Shown piece by piece: positions 2,799 through 63,556 of a stretch of DNA of 64,000 nt. Each line of letters opens with the position of its first letter. The first letter of the stretch is position 1. The stretch lies in sequence record PZ386958.1; one strand, written 5' to 3'. A program made the translations under genes and the position numbers. The notes below the pieces were generated by a model. That model was given only the letters and a program-made list of their open reading frames with translations. It had not been told where the DNA came from and did not search any database. Origin of the DNA: a phage.

Positions 2799-3080
2799 AA
2801 TGACCTCAAAGTTATATTAAATTTTGTATTACATTGAGTATAAAAATAAGCTATAACACCTGACTTGTCAACAGATTTTATAGCTTATTTGGCAGATTTT
2901 TTATAAGGCTACTGCCACCCTTCCATACCAGACCACACCATGCAAAACCAGACTTCACATCACCCGACCGTGCAATACATCACTTAAAAACCCTCTTAGA
3001 AGACTCTTAAGTGATGCTGGTGAGTACCCGTTGGTTTATGCTGCTCAGTATACTCACCAAATTTTCTATGTCAACAACTT

Positions 3081-4181
3081 TTATTCATAATCTCGTATAA
3101 CTAACCCAACAGGGAACTGTAAAGACCCCTTACGAGTCATCTTCTGGAACTGAACCGTTAAAGGTTTCCCGATAAACTCTTCAGGATGTTCAGCAAGATA
3201 CTGTTTCTTCTCGTGTGTAGTTTTCCATGAAACATCTACAAAGACGTTAGGAAGAGTCTCTACAACGAACTTACCATGACCACGCTTATCAGTCTTTACA
3301 CCAGTCACTTTAAACTCTTCAGTGTGCATCTTCTTGTGTTTAATCAAGAAGTATGAACGGTGACAACACTCATAGAAGGAGTCTTCAGAGATTGAACGGT
3401 ACATTGCACCTTCAAACTGAGCTTCAACCCACTTATCATGGGCTTCATCAAACTCTTCCCAAGAATTTACACGACGAGACTTAACAGGAACAACTTTACA
3501 GCCGTCTCTGAAGTCATTCAATGGTGAAGTCTCAATAATATCTCTACGCTCAGGCCATGTCTTAGTGCTGTCACAGATATCGTACCAGTAGAACTGGAGT
3601 AGATGTCGGTCTGGATTGTCAGCATTCTTAATCATAGACACAATGTCTTCTAAGTCCCAGCCATGAGCATAAATCTCGCCATCAAAGTCTTCAACTTGTG
3701 GATGTAATTTAAGCAACAAAAGCAAATCTGGGATTAGTTCTGCTGGAACGTTGTAAACAGTATTCTCACGAGAATAAGCCGTGAAACTAACTGTATCAGC
3801 ATCTCTTGAAATTCTACAACGGACACCATCAAGTTTTGGTTGAGCATCAGCAGGAAACTTCAGATACTTTGCATGGCTAACCTTTGCAGCATCATGAGCA
3901 AGCTGTACACCTACCTTCTCAGTATTCTGTGCAGACTCTTTTGTGTAAGCATAGCCTTTGCGGTCAATTTGCTTTTTATACTTAGCAGCAACTTCAAAGA
4001 GAGCTTGCTGTTCAGCATTACGCTCATTCTTTTTACCGATGTTTTTAGGTTCTGCTGTGTACTCTTCAAACATCATCTTGCCATTTTCTTTACCGTAGGT
4101 TGTAATAACTTTGTCACCTACAGCAACGCATGACCAGACGTTAAAAGAACCATCTTTATTTTGTTTGTACAGTGTTGTCAT
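3081..4181 (-). CDS. ATP-dependent DNA ligase
   Basis: 366 aa; nucleotidyltransferase motif I KLDGVR (adenylated lysine), motif III FDGEIY, motif IV EGAMYR, motif V LIKHKK. Confidence 0.75.
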   Translation of the reverse strand: MTTLYKQNKDGSFNVWSCVAVGDKVITTYGKENGKMMFEEYTAEPKNIGKKNERNAEQQALFEVAAKYKKQIDRKGYAYTKESAQNTEKVGVQLAHDAAKVSHAKYLKFPADAQPKLDGVRCRISRDADTVSFTAYSRENTVYNVPAELIPDLLLLLKLHPQVEDFDGEIYAHGWDLEDIVSMIKNADNPDRHLLQFYWYDICDSTKTWPERRDIIETSPLNDFRDGCKVVPVKSRRVNSWEEFDEAHDKWVEAQFEGAMYRSISEDSFYECCHRSYFLIKHKKMHTEEFKVTGVKTDKRGHGKFVVETLPNVFVDVSWKTTHEKKQYLAEHPEEFIGKPLTVQFQKMTRKGSLQFPVGLVIRDYE

Positions 4182-4384: not shown

Positions 4385-4393
4385 AGTTTTCCC

Positions 4394-4627
4394 TTAAAAG
4401 ACTAAGTCAATATCAATACGTTCACCCTTAAGTACTCCAGTACGGTCTTTTGCAATCTTCCCTTCAACAATAAGAATGTGTGCAGACCTTAAAGTGTCGC
4501 TGTTAAAGGCTTTTACGAACTTGCTAGGCATCACTACAATACACATCTCCTGAATCAACTCTGGAGTATAGCAATTGTCGTGAAGTTGCTGAATAACGTC
4601 TGCAAGTGTCATTTTTGATGTCTCCAA
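4394..4627 (-). CDS. Hypothetical small protein
   Basis: 77-aa ORF. Confidence 0.3.
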   Translation of the reverse strand: METSKMTLADVIQQLHDNCYTPELIQEMCIVVMPSKFVKAFNSDTLRSAHILIVEGKIAKDRTGVLKGERIDIDLVF

Positions 4628-4818: not shown

Positions 4819-4879
4819 AAGCCCTCCTATACAAGATATAGTATAAGGTACTCTTCCATGAGCACCTTGTCAATACTAA

Positions 4880-5436
4880 TTAGTGTACCTCATACCAGCT
4901 TTTACCAACCTTACCAGTACCTGTAACAAGTGTTTCTTTCTTAAGACCTAAGTTCTTAGAAGCTTGTCCATAATACCAGTCAGTAACTGCTTTCACTTCT
5001 GCCGTCATACTTTCTGGACATTCCCAACTCGTCTCGTCGTGATAGGAGCACAATAAACGAGCACCTATAGCTGGCTTGCGACCGTTCAACTTCATCAAAC
5101 CTTCGTCAATCATACGACGGCAAGCAAGGTTAATTGCTTCATTCTGAACCTGTGCTTCCGAACTCATCAGGAGGTAGTTCAGTAGTTTATGTGGAGATTT
5201 GCACCATATCCATGCTCCAGCGACCCTGATATAACCACCTTTAGCAATTGAAGAGTTCTTCCCGAAAACCTCTTCCAGAGCCTTTTTAGACGCCTTAAAA
5301 TCGGCTTCTAAGCTATCAAGTAACTTCTTAATCTTTGGCAGACGCATATAGTAAGTTTGTTTAGTCAATGCACCTTCTTCCGTAGATGATGCCTTGATAG
5401 TTTTTGCAAACTTCTCGTCACCTGCACCGAACAATA
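4880..5436 (-). CDS. DNA polymerase (family A, T7 gp5-like), exon 2
   Basis: Begins (L)FGAGDEKFA = end of O-helix/motif B (T7: FLYGAGDEK); contains motif C YHDE and C-terminal GKVGKSWYEVH (T7: GKMGPNWAICH). The track's start M is a TTG codon inside the exon. Confidence 0.8.
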
Positions 5437-5704
5437 CATCTGGTCAATACACTCGCAAGGTGTACCAGTTCTCTTATGAACTTCTCCGCATTTCTACGGA
5501 GTGTCGGACTATATCACGTAGTAGTAATACTACCGTTGCACTTGGGAATGGTCATTAGCTTACCACCCTACTCTACTCAGTTCATACATTAAGTATGCTT
5601 TTCGATAGTCTCTGAACGTTTCTCTTAAGAGGCTTCGCTGCTGATTACCATATCTTTACAGACTTAGGCTTCCAGCAATTCACAACGTTTTACATGCGCC
5701 ACTG
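5437..5704 (-). ncRNA. Group I self-splicing intron (ORF-less, 268 nt) interrupting the DNA polymerase gene
   Basis: RNA strand contains group I R element GUUCAGAGACUA (plus 5606-5617) and S element GAUAUAGUCC (plus 5505-5514) that can pair as P7; internal guide GCGCAU pairs with 5' exon end AUGCGU (terminal U.G); intron ends in G; removal fuses ...AKNGIYA to LLFGAGDEK in frame. Confidence 0.75.
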
Positions 5705-7877
5705 ACGCATAAATGCCATTTTTGGCTTTCTTACGACCTTTTGTAATCTCGTGGAGAAGTTCCTCATCCTGTGTCTCCCTACAACGAACAATATCTTCTT
5801 CCTTGTTCAGACCAAAGTAAATACTGTTCAGTGTATGCGCATCAGTCCCTGTGTAGACTTCATAGAGGTCGTTCTCAGCATCATAACGAAGATACTTGTC
5901 AGTTTCTGGATTAAGATACTTATCGAGATGCTTGCAATAGTATCTGCCATCATCCTGTTTAGTGAACTCTACAAACTCTTTACCCTCAGTTACTGCTTTA
6001 GTGAACTCTTTATCACCCATAAAGTTACAAAGGAGAACTAGCTGGGCTGAGTTCATATCAACGGAGACTACGTTGGTTCCCTCCTCACAAATCCAAACCT
6101 CCCTCATCGGTGCTCCATAGACAGCAGCACCAGACGGTACGTTTACAATGCCATATTGTGTCATACGTCCAGTTGAAGTACCAAACACCATTGCACCAGC
6201 ACTAAGGCGACCATCAGGACGAATCTGGTTCAACCAACCTTTTTCATCATCCTTTGAGTTCTCAATAGTTCTGCGTCGGTGCATCAAAGTGTAGTATTTA
6301 GCAATCTTCTGTCCAAGCTCACCTTCAATCGTATCATAAGATGATTCAGTAAGTTTTGGTGAAGTACGGATTAAGCAAGGCTCAAGCAAATCTGTGTATT
6401 TCTTCACAGACCAGTTATGCTCAATGTACTGTACACCTTCATGTTCAACATAACTCAAACCACACCGCTCAACCATTTCCTGCCACTTAGGATGTTTTGT
6501 AATCATCTTTTTATTGTCTTTGAAACGACAAACTTTGACAGGACGACCATCTGAGTCTTTCTTGTAGTTCCAGTCATCTGGAATCCAACCAACTGATTTC
6601 AAGTAGTCTTTAACAACGGCTACCTGAGTCATACGAGAAACTTCAAACTCAATTGGTGTATATGGTGCATCAATCAAACCTGTGTAGCGACTTGACTCAA
6701 GTTCAAAGTGGTTAACAACGTGGCTGTTATAGTACTTCACAGTCTTGACTGTTTTTACTGGTTTCCAGTCTTTGCATTTTTTGCCAATCTTTGCATTCAA
6801 CTCGTTGCAGATTGCACGAGCATCCTTCATTGCTACAAAGCCTTCCTTGTATTCTTCACCAGTTACAGTGTTGGTTGGCGTATAGCAATTCCTTTTTTCA
6901 ATGTTAAAAATCTTTGTAGTTGGCTTACCAAATGGCTTGATTTCATATGTCTGCATCTCACCGTTACGTACCTGCTGACGATACTTTGTCTTAGGGTACT
7001 TGGTAATTCTCTTCAGTCCATCTGCGTGACCAAATGCTTCAACATACTCATTCCAAGCTTTTGCAAACTCTTCTCCAGTAACTTTACCTTTGGTCTTAAT
7101 AGTTGGAGGTAGATGTGGTTCAACCTCTGAAGCAAGCTCATTAGTCAACTTGTCAAGTTCCTTTACATGGAACTCCATAAGCTCTTTATCAGCTTTCCAA
7201 CCATTGATAGCTTGTTGACTCATCCAGAAAGATGTTTCTTTAGCTCGCATGTAGGTTTCATAAGTGTCTATGCCACACTTCTTAAGCTTGAGATACTCGT
7301 TATCAAGTGCCCGTTTAGTTTTGGCGTTAATACGGATATCTTCTACAACACGAGTGAAGATTTCTGCATTCCACACACCCCAATGCTCAATCTCTGGCTT
7401 ACGAACACCAACACGAGCACCCCATGCAGCCAAGCCATGAGCACCTTTATAACCCTTTGGAGTTGGTCTATCCATCCACTGAACACGAGACTGAATAAGA
7501 GAATCCTGAAAGAAATTACTCCACGGCTTACATTTTGGATTATCAAAGTTCCATAAATCAGGTGCAATGTGATTGAAAACCCACCAGTCATAGCCGAGAC
7601 CATTATGGATGCAAAGACGTTTTGCCTTTAACGCAAATTCAACACCTTCACGTAAGCCGCCCTTGATGTACTTGGTATACTTGTGACCGAGGATAGGCTC
7701 GTCTGTAAAGACCCATACAGGCGGCTCTTCATCGTCAGATTTATAATCTGCGAAAGCCATTACGTGCACTTTAGTGAACTCAAGGAGTAAACCATCAGTT
7801 TCTGTATCACCAACCAAATGTAAGTTTTTAAAATCTACGTTTTCCATTTTTACTCCCTCTAAAATCATTAACCACAT
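5705..7877 (-). CDS. DNA polymerase (family A, T7 gp5-like), exon 1 (3'-5' exonuclease plus N-terminal polymerase domain)
   Basis: Exo I motif DTETDGL near N-terminus; ends with O-helix RKKAKNGIY (T7: RDNAKTFIYG). The track ORF reads 13 codons into the intron before a stop. Confidence 0.8.
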
Positions 7878-58689: not shown

Positions 58690-58766
58690 CTCTGTTTAGC
58701 TCAGCTTGGTAGAGCGTTCCGTTTGGGGCGGTAAGGCCGGAGGTTCAAGTCCTCCAACAGAGACCA
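58690..58766 (+). tRNA. tRNA-Pro (anticodon TGG)
   Basis: Acceptor CTCTGTT/AACAGAG, T-arm GGAGG-TTCAAGT-CCTCC, loop TTTGGGG, 3' CCA encoded. Confidence 0.6.
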
Positions 58767-58773
58767 AATTAAT

Positions 58774-58851
58774 GTTCCAGTAGACAAAATGGTATAGTCA
58801 CCACTCTTTCAAAGTGGATATCTGAGGGTTCAAATCCCTTCTGGAACGCCA
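58774..58851 (+). tRNA. tRNA-Glu (anticodon TTC)
   Basis: Acceptor GTTCCAG/CTGGAAC, anticodon stem CCACT/AGTGG loop CTTTCAA, T-loop TTCAAAT, CCA encoded. Confidence 0.6.
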
Positions 58852-58857
58852 GTTTTG

Positions 58858-58931
58858 ACAGAAGACCAATTACAGCAAACTTAATCTTATTCATCTGAAG
58901 GTAAATCGGACAAAGAAGAGATTTGGTCTGG
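58858..58931 (+). ncRNA. Bracket stem-loop element a (ACAGAAGACCaatTACAGCAA ... tTTGGTCTGG)
   Basis: 5' AGACCAA pairs with 3' TTGGTCT; conserved TACAGCAA; one of four copies with compensatory changes. Confidence 0.45.
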
Positions 58932-58942
58932 TCATTAAGAAT

Positions 58943-59019
58943 TGCGGGTATAGAGAAAGGGCGTCTCACATGTCTCATTAGCATGGTATCGGCAGGTTCG
59001 ACTCCTGCACCCGCCTCCA
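58943..59019 (+). tRNA. tRNA with CAT anticodon (Met or Ile-lysidine)
   Basis: Anticodon stem CATGT/GCATG loop CTCATTA; T-arm GCAGG-TTCGACT-CCTGC; 1-72 mismatch; CCA encoded. Confidence 0.5.
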
Positions 59020-59024
59020 AATTT

Positions 59025-59090
59025 ACAGAAGACCGTTTACAGCAATATTTATTAAATTTTTAGCGGAAAAATTGAAAGATACGGTCTGGT
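59025..59090 (+). ncRNA. Bracket stem-loop element b
   Basis: ACAGAAGACCGTTTACAGCAA ... ACGGTCTGG; AGACCGT pairs with ACGGTCT. Confidence 0.45.
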
Positions 59091-59102
59091 AATACTAAAC
59101 AT

Positions 59103-59179
59103 GGTTAGGAAGCACATAAGGTATGTGCGGTCGCCTGTTAAGCGAATGGCACAGGGTTCGAATCCCTGACTAACCGCCA
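59103..59179 (+). tRNA. tRNA-Asn (anticodon GTT)
   Basis: Loop CTGTTAA; T-arm CAGGG-TTCGAAT-CCCTG; acceptor 3' ACTAACC-G-CCA. Confidence 0.55.
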
Positions 59180-59248
59180 AATTTAGGAGAGAAGCGATTG
59201 CTCACCGATTTGTAAGGTGCAAGTCCTTAGCCTGAATAGAAATTAAAT

Positions 59249-59336
59249 GTGTCGTTATCCCGTAGATGGTAGCGGTGGGGACTGTAAATCCCTTGTCATT
59301 GAGACTCGGTAGGTTCTACTCCTACACGGCACACCA
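59249..59336 (+). tRNA. tRNA-Tyr (anticodon GTA), long variable arm
   Basis: 88 nt; anticodon stem GGGGA/TCCCT loop CTGTAAA; acceptor GTGTCGT/ACGGCAC; CCA encoded. Confidence 0.55.
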
Positions 59337-59341
59337 ATAAA

Positions 59342-59419
59342 GGTTATGTAGTTTAATTTGGTTAAAATACTCCCCTGTCACGGGAGATGATGAGGGTTCA
59401 AATCCCTTCGTAACCGCCA
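59342..59419 (+). tRNA. tRNA-Asp (anticodon GTC)
   Basis: Anticodon stem CTCCC/GGGAG loop CTGTCAC; T-arm GAGGG-TTCAAAT-CCCTT; CCA encoded. Confidence 0.6.
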
Positions 59420-59450
59420 ATTTTGAGAGGGCTATTTAGCCCCTCCCTTA

Positions 59451-59478
59451 AATGGTTCTTACGAGTATCCTTTAAAGG
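59451..59478 (+). ncRNA. Conserved small hairpin GGTTCTTACGAG(T/A)(A/G)TCCTT(T)AAA (copy 1)
   Basis: Second copy at 62447-62474. Confidence 0.3.
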
Positions 59479-59480
59479 AG

Positions 59481-59553
59481 CAGAAGACCAAATACAGCAA
59501 GAACGTATGAAATTTCAAGCCAATTTAATTTTGAAAATTTAAACTTGGTCTGG
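59481..59553 (+). ncRNA. Bracket stem-loop element c
   Basis: CAGAAGACCAAATACAGCAA ... CTTGGTCTGG. Confidence 0.45.
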
Positions 59554-59565
59554 CTCAACAAATTT

Positions 59566-59698
59566 ACAGAAGACCGTCTACAGCAAAACTTAAACAATCT
59601 ATTTCTCCGGTAAAGAAAAGGCGAAGGTTCGATTCCTTCACTCGGCAGATGTCGAGTTGGTGTAATGGTAGCACTTAAGATGATAAACAACGGTCTGG
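59566..59698 (+). ncRNA. Bracket element d enclosing a permuted tRNA-like module (T-arm, acceptor-like hairpin, D-arm); candidate Y-RNA-like ncRNA
   Basis: Closing stem AGACCGT(C)/ACGGTCT; inside: GAAGG-TTCGATT-CCTTC, hairpin ACTCGGC-AGAT-GTCGAGT, then TGGTGTAATGGTAGCAC; no anticodon arm. Confidence 0.45.
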
Positions 59699-59701
59699 TA
59701 A

Positions 59702-59841
59702 TTATCTTTGTAGATAAGTTATTAAGCTTACCTGTGAGTATGCGACCACAAAGGGTGAAAGGGTAAATTCTAGATTTAAACCCAAAAAGGCACATCGCTA
59801 CAGACCTTAAGCAAGTCTGGGTAGCTTATCTACAAAGATAA
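59702..59841 (+). ncRNA. Structured element closed by a perfect 17-bp inverted repeat (TTATCTTTGTAGATAAG / CTTATCTACAAAGATAA)
   Basis: Enclosed ~106 nt has internal hairpins (CAGACCTTAAGCAAGTCTG; AGCTTACC...GGTAGCTT); no ORF. Confidence 0.4.
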
Positions 59842-59847
59842 TTTAAT

Positions 59848-59923
59848 GGAAGTGTAGCAGAATGGTGATGCGGCAGACTTTTAATCTGACAGGCGATGGG
59901 TTCGAATCCCTCCACTTCTACCA
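59848..59923 (+). tRNA. tRNA-Lys (anticodon TTT)
   Basis: Acceptor GGAAGTG/CACTTCT; D-loop AGCAGAATGGTGATGC; loop CTTTTAA; T-loop TTCGAAT; CCA encoded. Confidence 0.55.
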
Positions 59924-59927
59924 AAAT

Positions 59928-60004
59928 GGTTCAGTCGCAGATAAGGTAATGCAGGGGTCTCATAAGCCCTATGAATGTGGGTTCGATTCCCATCTGAACC
60001 TCCA
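59928..60004 (+). tRNA. tRNA with CAT anticodon (second copy; Met or Ile-lysidine)
   Basis: Acceptor GGTTCAG/CTGAACC; anticodon stem GGGGT/GCCCT loop CTCATAA; T-loop TTCGATT; CCA encoded. Confidence 0.5.
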
Positions 60005-60006
60005 AT

Positions 60007-60081
60007 TGTGGGTTAGCATAAATGGTAATGCAAACGGCTGATAACCGTTAGAAGAGGGTTCGATACCCTCACCTACAACCA
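60007..60081 (+). tRNA. tRNA-Ile (anticodon GAT)
   Basis: Anticodon stem AACGG/CCGTT loop CTGATAA; T-arm GAGGG-TTCGATA-CCCTC; CCA encoded. Confidence 0.6.
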
Positions 60082-60095
60082 ATTTCAATAAAGTT

Positions 60096-60130
60096 GTTGA
60101 CATTAAGATGTGACTACTTTATAGTAACCT
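60096..60130 (+). promoter_or_regulatory. Sigma70-like promoter inside tRNA cluster (gttgacattaagatgtgactactttatagtaacc)
   Basis: TTGACA - 17 nt - TATAGT. Confidence 0.5.
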
Positions 60131-60328
60131 TAGTTTTCGTTGCGTAGCGTCTATTTTGCAAATTTAAAATAAATGCAAACGACAATGTTTTTCTGGCAGT
60201 AGCTTGATAGGCTAAACACCAGTGAGGTCTTCCAATCCCTCATCAAAGAATTTGGCGTACTCGCCCACGGTATGATTAATAAGGTGGGCATCTTTAAGGG
60301 CTTTCTAAGAGAGTCTTTAAAGATTAAT

Positions 60329-60403
60329 GCTCCGTTAGTCTAAAGGATAGGCATCTGTCTTCTAAACAGATTGATATAGGTTCGAGTCCTATACGGAGTG
60401 CCA
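60329..60403 (+). tRNA. tRNA-Arg (anticodon TCT)
   Basis: Acceptor GCTCCGT/ACGGAGT; anticodon stem TCTGT/ACAGA loop CTTCTAA; T-loop TTCGAGT; CCA encoded. Confidence 0.6.
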
Positions 60404-60519
60404 TATTTAGAGTGTCTCCAAATGGAGGTGGTCTGTATCTCATGTTTTCCAGAACATGTAAATAATCTGAGAAGGGGCTTTACAGTGTTGAGATAATACG
60501 GTAAGCTTCGAATTATAAT

Positions 60520-60602
60520 ATGGGACGATGTTAAGACTCTAAGGCATGAGCAACGGCTTCCAACACCGTTTCAAAGGGGTTCAACTCCTCCGTCCCATGC
60601 CA
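60520..60602 (+). tRNA. Atypical 83-nt tRNA (possible anticodon CCA, Trp) or tRNA-like gene
   Basis: Acceptor ATGGGAC/GTCCCAT and T-arm AGGGG-TTCAACT-CCTCC clear, CCA encoded; D/anticodon region too long and folds ambiguously. Confidence 0.35.
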
Positions 60603-60615
60603 AAGTCTTATTAGG

Positions 60616-60703
60616 GGTAGGTAGCGGCTAATGGTAGCCAAACTGTCTTGAAAACAGTTGCCACTGTAGAGATACGGTGAGGGTTCGACTCCTTTACTTA
60701 CCG
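60616..60703 (+). tRNA. tRNA-Ser (anticodon TGA), long variable arm; CCA apparently not encoded
   Basis: Anticodon stem ACTGT/ACAGT loop CTTGAAA; long extra arm; T-arm GAGGG-TTCGACT-CCTTT; acceptor 3' ACTTACC-G then CCT. Confidence 0.45.
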
Positions 60704-60859
60704 CCTAATAAGATTTTAAAGCCAAGCTTCATTCGGATGTTGCTTTGGCATCCCTCGTGTTGTCGTACACACTAATAAAGCACCTAGTAGGTGTCATGGA
60801 GAAGAGATAATATCAAGCTCTCCAAAGGTTCTAGTCACCGGATTAAACAAGACTATGCA

Positions 60860-60880
60860 AAGACCAATTTAGGTCTTTTT
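60860..60880 (+). terminator. Hairpin plus T-run (aagaccaatttaggtcttttt)
   Basis: Stem AGACC/GGTCT followed by TTTTT within tRNA cluster. Confidence 0.45.
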
Positions 60881-60959
60881 AGAGGGCTTCTAAGGTTATT
60901 ACAGCTTGTTGTGGAACCTTGTTGCTTAGGTTCTTAGAAGTTCTCTAAAAAGATTTAAT

Positions 60960-61036
60960 GCACCTATAGCCCAACTGGTAGAGGCAGCAGACTTAGAATC
61001 TGCTCAGTGTGAGTTCGAATCTCTCTAGGTGTACCA
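60960..61036 (+). tRNA. tRNA with anticodon TAG (Leu-decoding), short variable arm
   Basis: Acceptor GCACCTA/TAGGTGT; anticodon stem GCAGA/TCTGC loop CTTAGAA; T-loop TTCGAAT; CCA encoded. Confidence 0.45.
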
Positions 61037-61043
61037 AATTAAT

Positions 61044-61119
61044 GCAGGTGTAGCAGAATGGTGATGCGGCTGACTCTTAATCAGTAAGACGATGGGTTCA
61101 ATTCCCTCCACCTGTACCA
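61044..61119 (+). tRNA. tRNA-Lys (anticodon CTT)
   Basis: Paralog of 59848-59923; loop CTCTTAA; acceptor GCAGGTG/CACCTGT; CCA encoded. Confidence 0.55.
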
Positions 61120-61125
61120 AACATT

Positions 61126-61201
61126 GGGGATGTAGTTTACATGGTTAAAACATAAGTTTTGCAAACTTAAGTACAGGGTTCAATTCCCTGCTTCTCCACC
61201 A
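61126..61201 (+). tRNA. tRNA-Ala (anticodon TGC)
   Basis: Anticodon stem TAAGT/ACTTA loop TTTGCAA; G3:U70 wobble in acceptor; T-arm CAGGG-TTCAATT-CCCTG; CCA encoded. Confidence 0.55.
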
Positions 61202-61207
61202 ATTAGT

Positions 61208-61282
61208 GCATCCATAGTTTAAACGGGAAAATTACAGTCTTCCAAACTGAGGTTGAGGGTTCGATTCCCTCTGGATGCTCCA
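61208..61282 (+). tRNA. tRNA-Gly (anticodon TCC)
   Basis: Acceptor GCATCCA/TGGATGC; loop CTTCCAA; T-loop TTCGATT; CCA encoded. Confidence 0.6.
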
Positions 61283-61288
61283 AATAAA

Positions 61289-61365
61289 GCTGCTTTCGTA
61301 TAATTGGCTATTACACATCCCTTGTAAGGATGGAAATGCAGGTTCGAGTCCTGTGAGCAGCACCA
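61289..61365 (+). tRNA. tRNA-Thr (anticodon TGT)
   Basis: Acceptor GCTGCTT/GAGCAGC; anticodon stem CATCC/GGATG loop CTTGTAA; T-loop TTCGAGT; CCA encoded. Confidence 0.6.
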
Positions 61366-61367
61366 AT

Positions 61368-61455
61368 TCAGAGGTCAAGTGAAAGACCGCTGGTGTCAAC
61401 TGAAGACCGTAACAAATTCCACGGAGTTGAGTTAGCGGCACAACTTCAGACCTCT
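61368..61455 (+). ncRNA. Structured non-tRNA element with nested stems (CAGAGGTC...GACCTCT outer stem)
   Basis: Inner pairs TCAACT/AGTTGA and CCGCTG/AGCGG; contains bracket-like GAAGACCG; no ORF. Confidence 0.35.
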
Positions 61456-61460
61456 TTCAC

Positions 61461-61541
61461 ACTCGCTTAGTTTATATGGTAAAACATCACCCTTACAAGA
61501 TGAAGATGAAGAAAAAGGTTCAAGTCCTTTAGTGAGTACCA
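61461..61541 (+). tRNA. tRNA-like gene, atypical (possible anticodon TAC, Val) with enlarged variable region
   Basis: Acceptor ACTCGCT/AGTGAGT, T-arm AAAGG-TTCAAGT-CCTTT, CCA encoded; anticodon stem has a C-A mismatch. Confidence 0.35.
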
Positions 61542-61542
61542 T

Positions 61543-61620
61543 GTTCCAGTATCCCAATTGGCAGAGGATGCAAGCTCAAACCTTGTATTAGTGACGGTTC
61601 GAATCCGTCTTGGAACACCA
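61543..61620 (+). tRNA. tRNA with anticodon CAA (Leu-decoding), short variable arm
   Basis: Acceptor GTTCCAG/TTGGAAC; anticodon stem GCAAG/CTTGT loop CTCAAAC; T-loop TTCGAAT; CCA encoded. Confidence 0.45.
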
Positions 61621-61638
61621 ATTTAAAGAGGCTATTTA

Positions 61639-62196
61639 ATGAGATATTTGAAGTACGCTTCATGGATTTTCTTAGCTTTACTAGACCCAATTGCAGCAAC
61701 CCTAGCAGTTATCTTAGCACCTTTCGTAGTTCCATTCTACAGTGAAAAGAAAGGACACTTACCTTTTGGATTCAGATGGATGGAGACTTATGACAACCCG
61801 ATTGATGGTGATGAAGGCCACGTTAAAAGATGGGCTAAGATTAGAAAGATTGGTAAGCTTGGTGTCTACATGCAGAGAGTTGGATGGCTCTGGAGAAACA
61901 AAGCTTATAACTTCTCTTACCATGTATTAGGAAGAGATGTAAAAGATGTTACTAAGTGGAAAGGTAATATCAACGTAAGTTCTAACCCTGAAGATAATCA
62001 GACTGGTTATCTCCTAATGTGGAACAGTAATGCTTGGGGATTATTCGCTTTTATCCCATCAATTAAAGTCTTTGGTAAACAGTTTTACTGGAGAATTTAT
62101 ATTGGATGGAAACTAAAAAGTGTTGTCCCAGAAGAAAGAGCATTCTCAAGGGAAAGAGTTATGTTGGCATTCTTTATTCATCCACTGAGAAAGTAA
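61639..62196 (+). CDS. Membrane protein embedded in tRNA cluster
   Basis: 185 aa; hydrophobic N-terminus WIFLALLDPIAATLAVILAPFVVPF; flanked by tRNA genes. Confidence 0.45.
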   Translation: MRYLKYASWIFLALLDPIAATLAVILAPFVVPFYSEKKGHLPFGFRWMETYDNPIDGDEGHVKRWAKIRKIGKLGVYMQRVGWLWRNKAYNFSYHVLGRDVKDVTKWKGNINVSSNPEDNQTGYLLMWNSNAWGLFAFIPSIKVFGKQFYWRIYIGWKLKSVVPEERAFSRERVMLAFFIHPLRK

Positions 62197-62204
62197 AGAT
62201 TTAA

Positions 62205-62280
62205 AGGGGATTAGTTTACAAGGTTAAAACCTCGGTCTTTGAAATCGAAGAAGTTGGTTCAATTCCAACATCCCCCGCCA
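62205..62280 (+). tRNA. tRNA-Gln (anticodon TTG)
   Basis: Anticodon stem TCGGT/ATCGA loop CTTTGAA; T-arm GTTGG-TTCAATT-CCAAC; 1-72 mismatch; CCA encoded. Confidence 0.5.
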
Positions 62281-62282
62281 AT

Positions 62283-62361
62283 GCTCCATTACTCCAATTG
62301 GCAGAGAGGCCAGACTTAAAATCTGTGTTATGTATCGGTTCGAATCCGATATGGAGTACCA
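62283..62361 (+). tRNA. tRNA with anticodon TAA (Leu-decoding), short variable arm
   Basis: Acceptor GCTCCAT/ATGGAGT; loop CTTAAAA; T-arm ATCGG-TTCGAAT-CCGAT; CCA encoded. Confidence 0.45.
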
Positions 62362-62366
62362 AATTT

Positions 62367-62442
62367 AGCGGTATAGCATAACTGGCAATGCAGCAGTCTC
62401 TGAAGCTGTCTTATTAAGGTTCAAATCCTTATGCCGCTGCCA
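62367..62442 (+). tRNA. tRNA-Gln (anticodon CTG)
   Basis: Acceptor AGCGGTA/TGCCGCT; loop CTCTGAA; T-arm TAAGG-TTCAAAT-CCTTA; CCA encoded. Confidence 0.5.
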
Positions 62443-62446
62443 CTTC

Positions 62447-62474
62447 TAAGGGTTCTTACGAGAGTCCTTAAATG
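62447..62474 (+). ncRNA. Conserved small hairpin TAAGGGTTCTTACGAGAGTCCTTAAATG (copy 2)
   Basis: Stem TAAGG/CCTTA; same loop as 59451-59478. Confidence 0.3.
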
Positions 62475-62549
62475 TGGCCTTATCATAAATGGTAATGACC
62501 CATGCTGTGAACATGGTCTATACGGGTTCAAATCCCGTAGGTCACCCCA
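62474..62549 (+). tRNA. tRNA-His (anticodon GTG)
   Basis: Acceptor GTGGCCT/AGGTCAC; anticodon stem CCATG/CATGG loop CTGTGAA; T-arm ACGGG-TTCAAAT-CCCGT; CCA encoded. Confidence 0.6.
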
Positions 62550-62554
62550 ATTTA

Positions 62555-62631
62555 TAGTCCAAGTAGCTTATATGGTTAAAGCGCGTGTCTGAAAAACATG
62601 AGAAGAGGGTTCAAATCCCACTGGACTACCA
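62555..62631 (+). tRNA. tRNA-Phe (anticodon GAA)
   Basis: Anticodon stem CGTGT/ACATG loop CTGAAAA; T-loop TTCAAAT; acceptor AGTCCAA/CTGGACT (one mismatch); CCA encoded. Confidence 0.5.
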
Positions 62632-62647
62632 ATTTCAAAGGTGCTTA

Positions 62648-63382
62648 ATGAAAGAGATGACAGAACAAGGTAAGGAGATTTTTAATCTCTTAAAAACCGG
62701 TAGAGGGTTTTCTAATCCCCTTATTACTGGTGCAGCAGTTCTAGGTGGAACCGTGGCTGCCTCTACATCACTTGTAAGCTCTATTAGCTCTGTAACAGAC
62801 CCTACAATAAAGGATAAACTTATTGCTGCTGGACTTACAACAGTTCTGCTTAATAGCTTTACAACGAGTCTGACAAGCACTACATCAACTACTAAGACCC
62901 TAACAGACTATGGTCAAAAGTCTATTGATGAGTTTTCATCACGTATGCAGGTAGCAAAGGGATACTCCAATGTTATGGGTGCAGCAGGAGAACAAGTCGG
63001 TTGTACACCATTCAGTGGTATTATGGGTGTTGCTACAGAGTATGGTCAAAAAGCTATTGATATGATTAACAGTGCACTAGACGGTGTTAATGATGTATTA
63101 AGTGACTTACAAGACGCTATTGACAAAGGTCTTGATACTATTTCTGATTTAGCTAACCAAGCTGTTAGTAAGATTAATGAAGGTATCTCGAAGATTACAG
63201 CTTATGCAGATGAAGTTGTGCAGATGATTGAAGAAGAAGCTGCCCTTATTGCAGAGTACCTTAAAACGAATATCAATGGGTTCTTAGCAGGTATCTTACC
63301 AGACTGGTTTGATGATGCTTGTAAAACTGGTGTAATTGATACTATTGCAACACCAGAAATGAAGAACGCATTACAGAAATAA
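62648..63382 (+). CDS. Hypothetical protein embedded in tRNA cluster (Ser/Thr-rich N-terminal region)
   Basis: Start MKEMTEQGKE chosen downstream of tRNA-Phe (track ORF 62585 would overlap the tRNA); about 244 aa. Confidence 0.45.
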   Translation: MKEMTEQGKEIFNLLKTGRGFSNPLITGAAVLGGTVAASTSLVSSISSVTDPTIKDKLIAAGLTTVLLNSFTTSLTSTTSTTKTLTDYGQKSIDEFSSRMQVAKGYSNVMGAAGEQVGCTPFSGIMGVATEYGQKAIDMINSALDGVNDVLSDLQDAIDKGLDTISDLANQAVSKINEGISKITAYADEVVQMIEEEAALIAEYLKTNINGFLAGILPDWFDDACKTGVIDTIATPEMKNALQK

Positions 63383-63383
63383 T

Positions 63384-63476
63384 GGAAGATTAACCCTAAA
63401 AGGTAAGGGAGCAGTTTGCTAAACTGCCAGTAGCTGAGAAATCGGTGTACCAGTTCAAGTCTGGTATCTTCCTCCA
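63384..63476 (+). tRNA. tRNA-Ser (anticodon GCT), long variable arm
   Basis: Acceptor GGAAGAT/ATCTTCC; anticodon stem GCAGT/ACTGC loop TTGCTAA; long extra arm; T-arm ACCAG-TTCAAGT-CTGGT; CCA encoded. Confidence 0.55.
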
Positions 63477-63480
63477 ATTT

Positions 63481-63556
63481 GAATCCGTGACAGAAATGGC
63501 TATGTGCCTGTCTGCAAAACAGGTTTATAAGGGTTCGAGTCCCTTCGGATTCTCCA
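63481..63556 (+). tRNA. tRNA-Cys (anticodon GCA)
   Basis: Acceptor GAATCCG/CGGATTC (perfect); anticodon stem CCTGT/ACAGG loop CTGCAAA; T-arm AAGGG-TTCGAGT-CCCTT; CCA encoded. Confidence 0.6.

Follow-up and report, generated by a model that had tools for sequence, protein, structure and literature searches.

The window, the whole 64,000-nt stretch of phage DNA analyzed here (PZ386958.1), belongs to a Felixounavirus (a Felix O1-like myovirus), and its family A DNA polymerase gene lies on the minus strand, split by an intron. On either side of the interruption is a minus-strand open reading frame, one at 5664-7877 (737 aa) and the other at 4880-5434 (184 aa). Exon 1 (5705-7877, minus strand) comprises 724 codons plus 1 nt when counted from ATG 7877, ends in ...GRKKAKNGIYA, and contributes as its last base the U that is the first position of a Leu codon. 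If unspliced, its frame continues for 13 codons inside the intron and then meets UAA at 5664-5666. ATG 7847, which has GAGGGAG upstream, is a likelier start of the polymerase than ATG 7877; the annotated start in relatives is the equivalent of 7847 in some records, or else of 7877. Exon 2 (4880-5436, minus strand) begins with UA, which completes the Leu codon, is translated as (L)LFGAGDEK..., and terminates with TAA at 4880-4882. Joining 5705 to 5436 generates a 2730-nt frame with a single terminal stop that reads ...IYALLFGAGDEK; the predicted mRNA junction is ...ATTTATGCGT joined to TATTGTTCGG (GCGT/TATTG). The predicted spliced reading is a polymerase of 909 aa (~100 kDa), with the intron in the codon of Leu725, the junction at residue 724/725, and a junction-spanning tryptic peptide that contains NGIYALLFGAGDEK. 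The sequence-only reading of this DNA had anticipated the two reading frames, the residues at the exon ends and the in-frame outcome of splicing, as well as the boundaries, the location in the O-helix and the lack of an endonuclease frame that are described below, and in all of these respects it stands.

The alignment with T7 gp5 crosses the junction, TRDNAKTFIYGFLYGAGDEK matching GRKKAKNGIYALLFGAGDEK over it, and places the insertion in the O-helix (motif B). The family A motif B signature R..AK...Y....G is present, and the Pfam DNA_pol_A match (PF00476; 52.9 bits vs a cutoff of 34.3) extends over residues 713-906 of the spliced protein, spanning the junction. Leu725 of the spliced reading is aligned with T7 gp5 F528, which we take to be the approximate counterpart of L764 in E. 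coli Pol I, a residue of the O-helix (motif B) of the fingers. A 2012 paper gives three intron sites for phage PolA (674, 676 and 881); judged by alignment, the O-helix site (~764) differs from all three and is an addition to them.

The insert is almost certainly a group I intron, 268 nt long and of the IA2-like kind found in phages (5437-5704, minus strand; no P2, with P7.1 and P7.2 present), devoid of an endonuclease and most likely derived by deletion; the RF00028 match, intronless alleles, a structure model and covariation all bear on this assignment. Its boundaries are given by two intronless alleles of close relatives, L001 and L002 (Felix O1), from which exactly these 268 nt are missing. 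Both read without interruption as ...KNGIYALLFGAGDEK and encode IYALLFGAGDEK, the predicted spliced peptide. A scan with the Rfam group I model RF00028, which the sequence-only reading had set as a test, returned 63.3 bits (gathering score 50; E 1e-13) over the full model (1-253), with the match at 5484-5767 on the minus strand. As P1 and P2 are misplaced by the model (and part of P6 in the Rfam alignment as well), the match overlaps exon 1 by ~60 nt; the true 5' end of the intron is 5704, where it had originally been put. A 311-nt sister allele scores 62.3 bits with the same model. The polymerase intron is the sole group I match in the window even at a permissive Rfam threshold of E<=0.1, which yields no second group I intron. 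One paper speaks of 'two introns' in a relative. No sense-strand open reading frame of >=30 aa lies within the intron. Two antisense frames (54 and 62 aa) were considered as genes and rejected for want of a Pfam match; one of them is entered as a 'hypothetical protein' in phage L27.

An artefact of sequencing or assembly, or else an insertion of another kind (an IS element, an intein or a translational bypass segment), would account for the split reading frame itself and for nothing more, and we give it next to no credence. Dozens of phages, sequenced independently of one another, carry the 268-nt insert at 96-100% identity; in-frame stops show that it is not an intein; it has neither a transposase nor terminal repeats and scores as RF00028; and at 268 nt it greatly exceeds the translational bypass segment of phage T4 (cited as 50 nt).

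In the P1-P10 model of the intron RNA all pairs are Watson-Crick or G.U. P1 (5693-5711; this and all further elements on the minus strand) joins exon UAUGCGU (TATGCGT in the DNA, 5705-5711) to the internal guide GCGCAUG (GCGCAT(G) in the DNA, 5693-5699) and sets the U(-1).G6 pair at the 5' splice site; folded in isolation, the P1 hairpin has a free energy of -8.7 kcal/mol (z -2.9). The structure model supplies P10, 5 bp between exon 2 UAUUG (5432-5436) and intron nt 1-5, CAGUG (5700-5704). The segment 5639-5687 contains the 5' strand of P3 (5681-5687), P4 (5672-5677 with 5639-5644) and P5/P5a (5647-5669, closed by a GUAA tetraloop), for which MFE fold, model and covariation agree. The region 5616-5638 holds P6 together with a P6a truncated to 3 bp with a UUAA loop, and it is here that relatives carry a 539-nt insert with an endonuclease ORF; on its own, this truncated P6/P6a is of marginal stability (-1.6 kcal/mol, on a par with shuffled sequences). 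The 5' strand of P7, GAGACUAU (5605-5612; model and covariation), with bulged A94 and the predicted guanosine-binding pair G95-C198, lies partly in the R element, GTTCAGAGACTA (5606-5617). The 3' strand, AUAGUCC (5506-5512), lies in the S element, GATATAGTCC (5506-5515), and is preceded within 5506-5540 by the 3' strand of P3 (5534-5540) and by P8 (5518-5533), again with fold, model and covariation in accord. Between P7 and the 3' strand of P3 stand two hairpins that are typical subgroup IA extras, P7.1 (5583-5597) and P7.2 (5544-5568), seen in the MFE fold and the model; both form here, and in the aligned homologues the corresponding columns are filled in only ~25% (P7.1) and ~10% (P7.2) of cases. 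The model places P9 (5484-5501, GAAA tetraloop), P9.1 (5468-5481) and P9.2 (5441-5467) in the 3' part of the intron (5437-5501), which ends with omega-G (G268) at 5437. The R and S elements with their P7 pairing, the guide with its U.G at the splice site and the terminal G had all been picked out from the letters alone, and each is retained in the model. The MFE fold independently yields P3, P4, P5, P5a, P7.1, P7.2, P8, P9 and P9.1; the z-score of the whole intron is a modest -1.87.

Covariation was assessed in 123 homologous intron cores from phage and viral contigs, found with a model of the core. In this alignment, which was fitted to the model and consequently leans towards the modelled helices, 92.2% of cells are paired (vs 69% in shuffles and <=43% with slid partners) and compensatory changes occur in 43 of the 51 pairs. 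P7, which lay outside the search model, is the exception to that leaning: 82.6% of its cells are paired, with compensatory changes in five of seven pairs. The 120 viral contigs with the P3/P4 core pattern were also considered as PolA motif B introns and rejected: tblastn with the Felix polymerase found no matches in them, and no motif B signature was found upstream of their cores, save for one spurious regex match. They were used solely as covariation material.

The exons bear their own trace of the intron. Within 240 nt on either side of the junction, all differences between the window and intronless L001 fall close together, between -23 and +17; ten of them are synonymous changes at third positions, spread over nine codons in a row (intronless target sequence, ATCTACGCCCTGTTATTTGGAGCCGGA; recoded intron-type exon junction, ATTTATGCGTTATTGTTCGGTGCAGGT). 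The changes at -1, -2 and -5 make P1 pairs and the change at +5 makes a P10 pair. Exon bases near the splice site are, on this comparison, evidently recoded in synonymous fashion to pair with the intron guide.

A pathway of splicing can be proposed on this framework. The pre-mRNA would fold to the P3-P8 and P4-P6 core; exon UAUGCGU and the internal guide would come together as P1, so that a U.G wobble marks the 5' splice site; and free guanosine in the G95-C198 site of P7 would attack after U(-1). Terminal G268 would next occupy the same site in P7, with P10 (intron nt 1-5 and UAUUG) aligning the 3' exon, and exon ligation would restore U/UA (Leu) and the reading ...KNGIYALLFGAGDEK. Self-splicing in this phage is proposed as probable, with support at the level of sequence and structure model. 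At its 5' end, exon 2 has neither a Shine-Dalgarno sequence nor an in-frame ATG; since these are propagated lytic isolates, we infer that a working polymerase requires splicing.

The notion that the insert is instead a dead relic that does not splice, with an active polymerase assembled from two separate polypeptides (~737 and ~184 aa), is very improbable. The two 'DNA polymerase' CDSs annotated in most GenBank relatives would fit it, as would the weakness of the truncated P6a. However, the chain would be broken inside the O-helix, between residues aligned with T7 Y526 and Y530, and the second polypeptide would have to be made from an exon lacking those initiation signals, for which annotators have chosen inconsistent internal starts. 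The core helices, moreover, are all intact, the ribozyme is 96-99.6% conserved across ~90 records, and the recoded exon flanks keep the P1 and P10 pairing.

Splicing being the preferred reading, the sister alleles bear on how the intron came to its present form. ORF-bearing alleles, such as that of VSe11, are 805 nt long and encode a 161-aa Endonuclease VII/HNH-type protein (PF02945) wholly within the P6a loop; a further class is a 311-nt remnant. The P6a stem has 12 bp in both of these, only the basal 3 bp remain in the window allele, and 2 nt stand in place of the 539-nt segment of relatives. An approximate census (diverged alleles escape megablast when the probes are 60 nt long, and the intronless probe matched only 28 records) finds the intron in ~124 phage records, 45 of which have the ORF-less P6a junction of the window type. 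Because P6a is cut down to 3 bp and relatives hold the endonuclease in an extended P6a, the 268-nt allele is best read, from sequence comparison, as an endonuclease-less deletion derivative of an ORF-bearing intron.

An intron that splices but whose ORF-less form is ancestral, the endonuclease gene having entered P6a later in sister lineages, is the less likely history, to which we allot a small probability. Endonuclease genes are generally known to invade intron loops independently; the sister endonuclease ORFs (77-100% identity) are far more divergent than the ribozyme, as fits a separate history; and the related intron of phage Bas89 (see below) holds a different endonuclease. Against this stands the P6a stem, for which reduction from 12 bp to a basal 3 bp and 2 nt is most simply explained by deletion.

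As a deletion derivative without endonuclease, the intron would be unable to mobilize itself and would persist by vertical descent or, alternatively, via recombination or trans-acting nucleases in co-infection. The ORF-less intron and the recoded exon patch (~25 nt) might jointly constitute an immunity allele against the Endonuclease VII-type homing enzyme of co-infecting Felixounaviruses, perhaps also guarding the polymerase gene from a free-standing HNH gene that lies just downstream of pol in relatives and is absent in the window. This is a speculative suggestion, rather doubtful but deserving mention: were it true, endonuclease-less introns would be mobilized in trans by Endonuclease VII-type or HNH enzymes, and the intronless, ORF-bearing, 311-nt and 268-nt classes would represent an ongoing cycle of homing in a coliphage and Salmonella phage genus that can be cultivated. 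Collaborative homing with the free-standing HNH gene was considered separately and rejected: the gene adjoins intronless and intron-bearing alleles alike, with no association in a small sample. The coexistence of four allele classes with a sharply bounded recoded patch, in phages that are easily grown, makes for a handy natural system in which to study homing, co-conversion and endonuclease loss.

That phage DNA polymerase genes can contain group I introns has been clear since SPO1 (1990), and the Felixounavirus intron is a real but ordinary sort of phage mobile element; the principle is not new. The closest parallels in setting include the enterobacterial phage polymerase introns at Pol I 881 (which we take to be in motif C), which likewise have a family A polymerase host gene; their core is of the IA2 type, as that of the Felixounavirus intron probably is. 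These contain an HNH-family endonuclease ORF in P6a, whereas the Felixounavirus intron, at ~764 in motif B, has an ORF there in sister alleles only, of the Endonuclease VII (PF02945) type, and the window copy has none. The introns of the Bacillus phages SPO1, SP82 and Bastille and of cyanophage Pf-WMP3 are likewise group I introns in phage family A polymerases. They belong to subgroup IA2, are self-splicing, sit in conserved fingers or palm motifs and are spread by HNH nicking endonucleases (I-HmuI, I-HmuII, I-BasI and I-PfoP3I; PMC3428280, PMC11878797). They differ from the window intron in their sites (674 or 676 rather than the O-helix), in having endonuclease ORFs and in that their splicing is experimentally proven; that of the window intron is predicted.

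The PolA intron of Escherichia phage KarlSchell_Bas89 (PQ850613, where the CDS is given as a join) is, like the Felixounavirus intron, in the O-helix and in phase 1, with similar P3-P4 core and P9-region sequences, and has its endonuclease inside the intron. It differs in its length (780 nt), in its T7-like host polymerase and in its reconstructed site, 6 nt (two codons) farther downstream, in the Tyr codon of ...FIYAFN/YGAGD. A shared Felix-type endonuclease was considered and rejected (BLASTP E 0.15, no significant similarity). In phage T4, group I introns interrupt td, nrdB and nrdD; the I-TevIII of this phage is defunct. The T4 introns differ from the Felixounavirus intron in their host genes, which are those of nucleotide metabolism, and in their endonuclease families. 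In td the endonuclease ORF is in the P6a loop, and ORF-deleted td introns still splice; related phages vary in whether they have introns and endonucleases.

Felix O1 was earlier reported to be intron-free (PMC3185647), and a comparative paper on the genus in 2021 took the intron's endonuclease for an 'integration and excision endonuclease VII' (PMC8300805). No explicit description of the Felixounavirus intron was found in the literature outside subscription journals. The intron is present in roughly half of the sequenced relatives, and most records show two 'DNA polymerase' genes, often with a spurious antisense ORF in addition; annotation as a joined CDS would correct these two-gene polymerase records.

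The DNA polymerase gene lies on the minus strand as two ORFs around a gap: an upstream ORF of 737 aa (5664-7877) that reads ...GRKKAKNGIYA and then 13 codons to UAA, and a downstream ORF of 184 aa (4880-5434) that reads (L)LFGAGDEK.... Excising 5437-5704 leaves a single frame of 2730 nt, which is open up to its terminal stop and reads ...KNGIYALLFGAGDEK.... The sequence-only reading, of a polymerase gene split by an ORF-less group I intron, is correct in both observation and interpretation. Its R and S elements, internal guide and terminal G all check out at the stated positions, and the scan that it proposed with RF00028, the Rfam group I covariance model, yields a match at 5484-5767 (minus strand; 63.3 bits against a gathering score of 50, E 1e-13), which runs past the intron into exon 1 because the model misaligns P1/P2. 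Comparison with relatives tests the reading more strongly. When 300 nt of spliced junction are queried against phage records, some match without interruption (e.g., PQ064465 and Felix O1, NC_005282) and others in two pieces 268 nt apart. In alignment, exactly the proposed 268 nt are missing from the intronless alleles, which encode the same IYALLFGAGDEK. Shifting both splice sites by one base also stays in frame (A-V-L), but breaks the U(-1)/omega-G rule and conflicts with the intronless alleles, which have Leu there. Two antisense ORFs in the intron (5394-5592, plus strand; 54 and 62 aa) have no Pfam match and are, for that reason, probably spurious; phage L27 annotates the equivalent ORF as a 'hypothetical protein'.

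Pfam DNA_pol_A covers residues 713-906 of the spliced protein, spanning the junction at residue 724/725, and the alignment with T7 DNA polymerase crosses the junction as well (TRDNAKTFIYGFLYGAGDEK to GRKKAKNGIYALLFGAGDEK). Together these place the break, as had been claimed, in the O-helix, after base 1 of the Leu codon aligned with T7 F528, which we take to be L764 of E. coli Pol I (motif B numbering). Neither a Shine-Dalgarno sequence nor an in-frame ATG was found for starting exon 2. From this, from the position of the break inside the O-helix and from the phages' being propagated lytic isolates, it follows that splicing should be needed, and that the polymerase would not be made as a two-subunit enzyme. 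Going by its family, the intron would splice by the usual two transesterification steps, initiated by guanosine, and rebuild the Leu codon as U/UA.

In the structure model, P1 pairs exon UAUGCGU with GCGCAUG, with U.G at the splice site, and P10 pairs CAGUG with exon 2 UAUUG; P3, P4, P5/P5a (GUAA loop), P6/P6a, P7 (bulged A94, with G95-C198 the predicted guanosine site), P7.1, P7.2, P8, P9 (GAAA loop), P9.1 and P9.2 are also modelled. All pairs are Watson-Crick or G.U; most of the helices are recovered by an unconstrained MFE fold, and the stability of the P1 and P9 hairpins is far above that of shuffles. With no P2 and with P7.1 and P7.2 included, the modelled layout is IA2-like, resembling that described for phage introns of this subgroup (PMC3428280). 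A covariance model built from intron nt 14-201 found 123 matches among viral-contig and phage loci. In the alignment of these cores, whose fitting to the covariance model favours the modelled helices, 92.2% of cells pair (69.0% in shuffles, 28-43% with slid partners), compensatory changes occur at 43 of 51 pairs, and covariation scores 0.368, compared with 0.097 for shuffles. In P7, which lies outside the search model, 82.6% of cells pair and 5 of 7 pairs covary.

The flanking exons are also marked. Within ~240 nt on either side of the junction, the spliced gene differs from that of the intronless relative L001 only in a cluster from -23 to +17: one Ala/Ser codon and, over a run of nine codons, ten synonymous changes at third positions (ATT TAT GCG TTA TTG TTC GGT GCA GGT in the intron allele, ATC TAC GCC CTG TTA TTT GGA GCC GGA in the intronless allele). 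The changes at -1, -2 and -5 make P1 pairs, the splice-site U included, and that at +5 makes a P10 pair. The remaining recoded positions reach past P10 and may be the trace of co-conversion over a short tract or of immunity at an endonuclease site. The patch is present in all 3 of the other intron-bearing relatives examined and missing in both (2/2) intronless ones.

The intron alleles form a tidy natural polymorphism, with ~124 close matches to an intron probe (at least 80% identity) in the phage collection. Some relatives, e.g., VSe11, have an 805-nt allele whose P6a loop has a 539-nt segment in place of 2 nt found in the window. The segment's 161-aa ORF (Pfam Endonuclease_7, PF02945, 71.4 bits) lies wholly inside the loop that a 12-bp P6a stem closes and is found in at least 26 records at 77-100% identity. 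A 311-nt allele, in phage Mushroom and ~34 records of the 80-90% identity band, retains the long P6a stem and has no ORF; the window's minimal P6a junction is common to 45 records. Folded alone, the window's P6/P6a is marginal at -1.6 kcal/mol; the corresponding value in the 311-nt form is -22.4. A deletion origin is the best reading of the window allele; possibly, instead, the endonuclease ORF invaded P6a later, and the window form would then not be a deletion product.

The Felix O1 genome paper reports introns as absent (PMC3185647), which is correct for that strain itself. A 2021 genus comparison took the endonuclease VII gene for an integration/excision function (PMC8300805), and one 2023 paper lists 'two introns' among ncRNAs, with no detail. 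An explicit account of the Felixounavirus polymerase intron was not found in a search of the literature outside subscription journals. The intron is mostly mis-annotated; its class is well known and a polymerase intron will not surprise the specialist; this member is new and its insertion site previously unlisted. Phage PolA introns are on record at E. coli positions 674 (SPO1, SP82, Bastille, Pf-WMP3), 676 (phiL7) and 881 (PhiI, W31), all IA2 with HNH endonucleases, located in P6a in PhiI, W31 and Pf-WMP3 (PMC3428280); the window's site, at ~764, differs from all of these. Bastillevirinae polymerases have up to three introns apiece. The PolA CDS of phage Bas89 is annotated as a join; its 780-nt intron, reconstructed two codons downstream of the Felixounavirus site (FIYAFN/YGAGD), has the same phase but an unrelated endonuclease. 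The closest non-Felix ribozyme core (506-683 of locus L005; R1 103 bits, RF00028 91.8 bits) belongs to the N4-like coliphage vB_EcoP-ZQ2 (NC_070874), where it splits a gene annotated 'RNA polymerase', with an HNH endonuclease ORF just downstream. In the crAss-like phage cr3_1 (NC_055874), the annotated DNA polymerase is a pair of CDSs flanking a 'homing endonuclease'; the 5' part (2993-3186 of locus L006) matches the intron core model at 87.6 bits, but the locus falls below the RF00028 gathering score, likely on account of a long ORF insert. The IMG/VR contigs L061, L010 and L066 each pack 4-5 distinct group I intron cores into a few kb.

The polymerase region (2998 nt) has matches in 263 phage records, almost all of them from Felix O1-like myoviruses (Felixounavirus) of Escherichia and Salmonella at 90-95% identity, and the gene order around the polymerase (DNA ligase, small ORFs) is that of Felix O1. 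Public records are divided over the polymerase start (region 7845-7877) between ATG 7847, which has an upstream GAGGGAG Shine-Dalgarno, and ATG 7877, which does not. Exon 2 is 87-89% identical to relatives overall, against 95-96% for exon 1; its 3' half (4880-5140), the last ~250 nt of the gene, is far more divergent than the rest (10-28 differences per 60 nt). A free-standing ~530-nt HNH endonuclease gene that follows the polymerase in all relatives examined (Felix O1, CECAV_041, VSe11, L27, Mushroom) is missing at 4873-4877 (compare 3328-3859 of relative locus L004). The divergent stretch adjoins its position, which suggests a recombination boundary. A second block, of ~410 nt (L004 4323-4736), is also absent, at 4387-4409. 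A cluster of ~23 tRNA genes occupies 58690-63553 (plus strand); among them, the gene at 60616-60703 stands out by its long variable arm and a score of just 33 bits. MG065664 and MG065668 (Campylobacter phages A132 and A126) and GU169904 (Staphylococcus phage SA1) contain Felixounavirus polymerase sequence (92-100% identity) and are probably mislabelled or contaminated assemblies.
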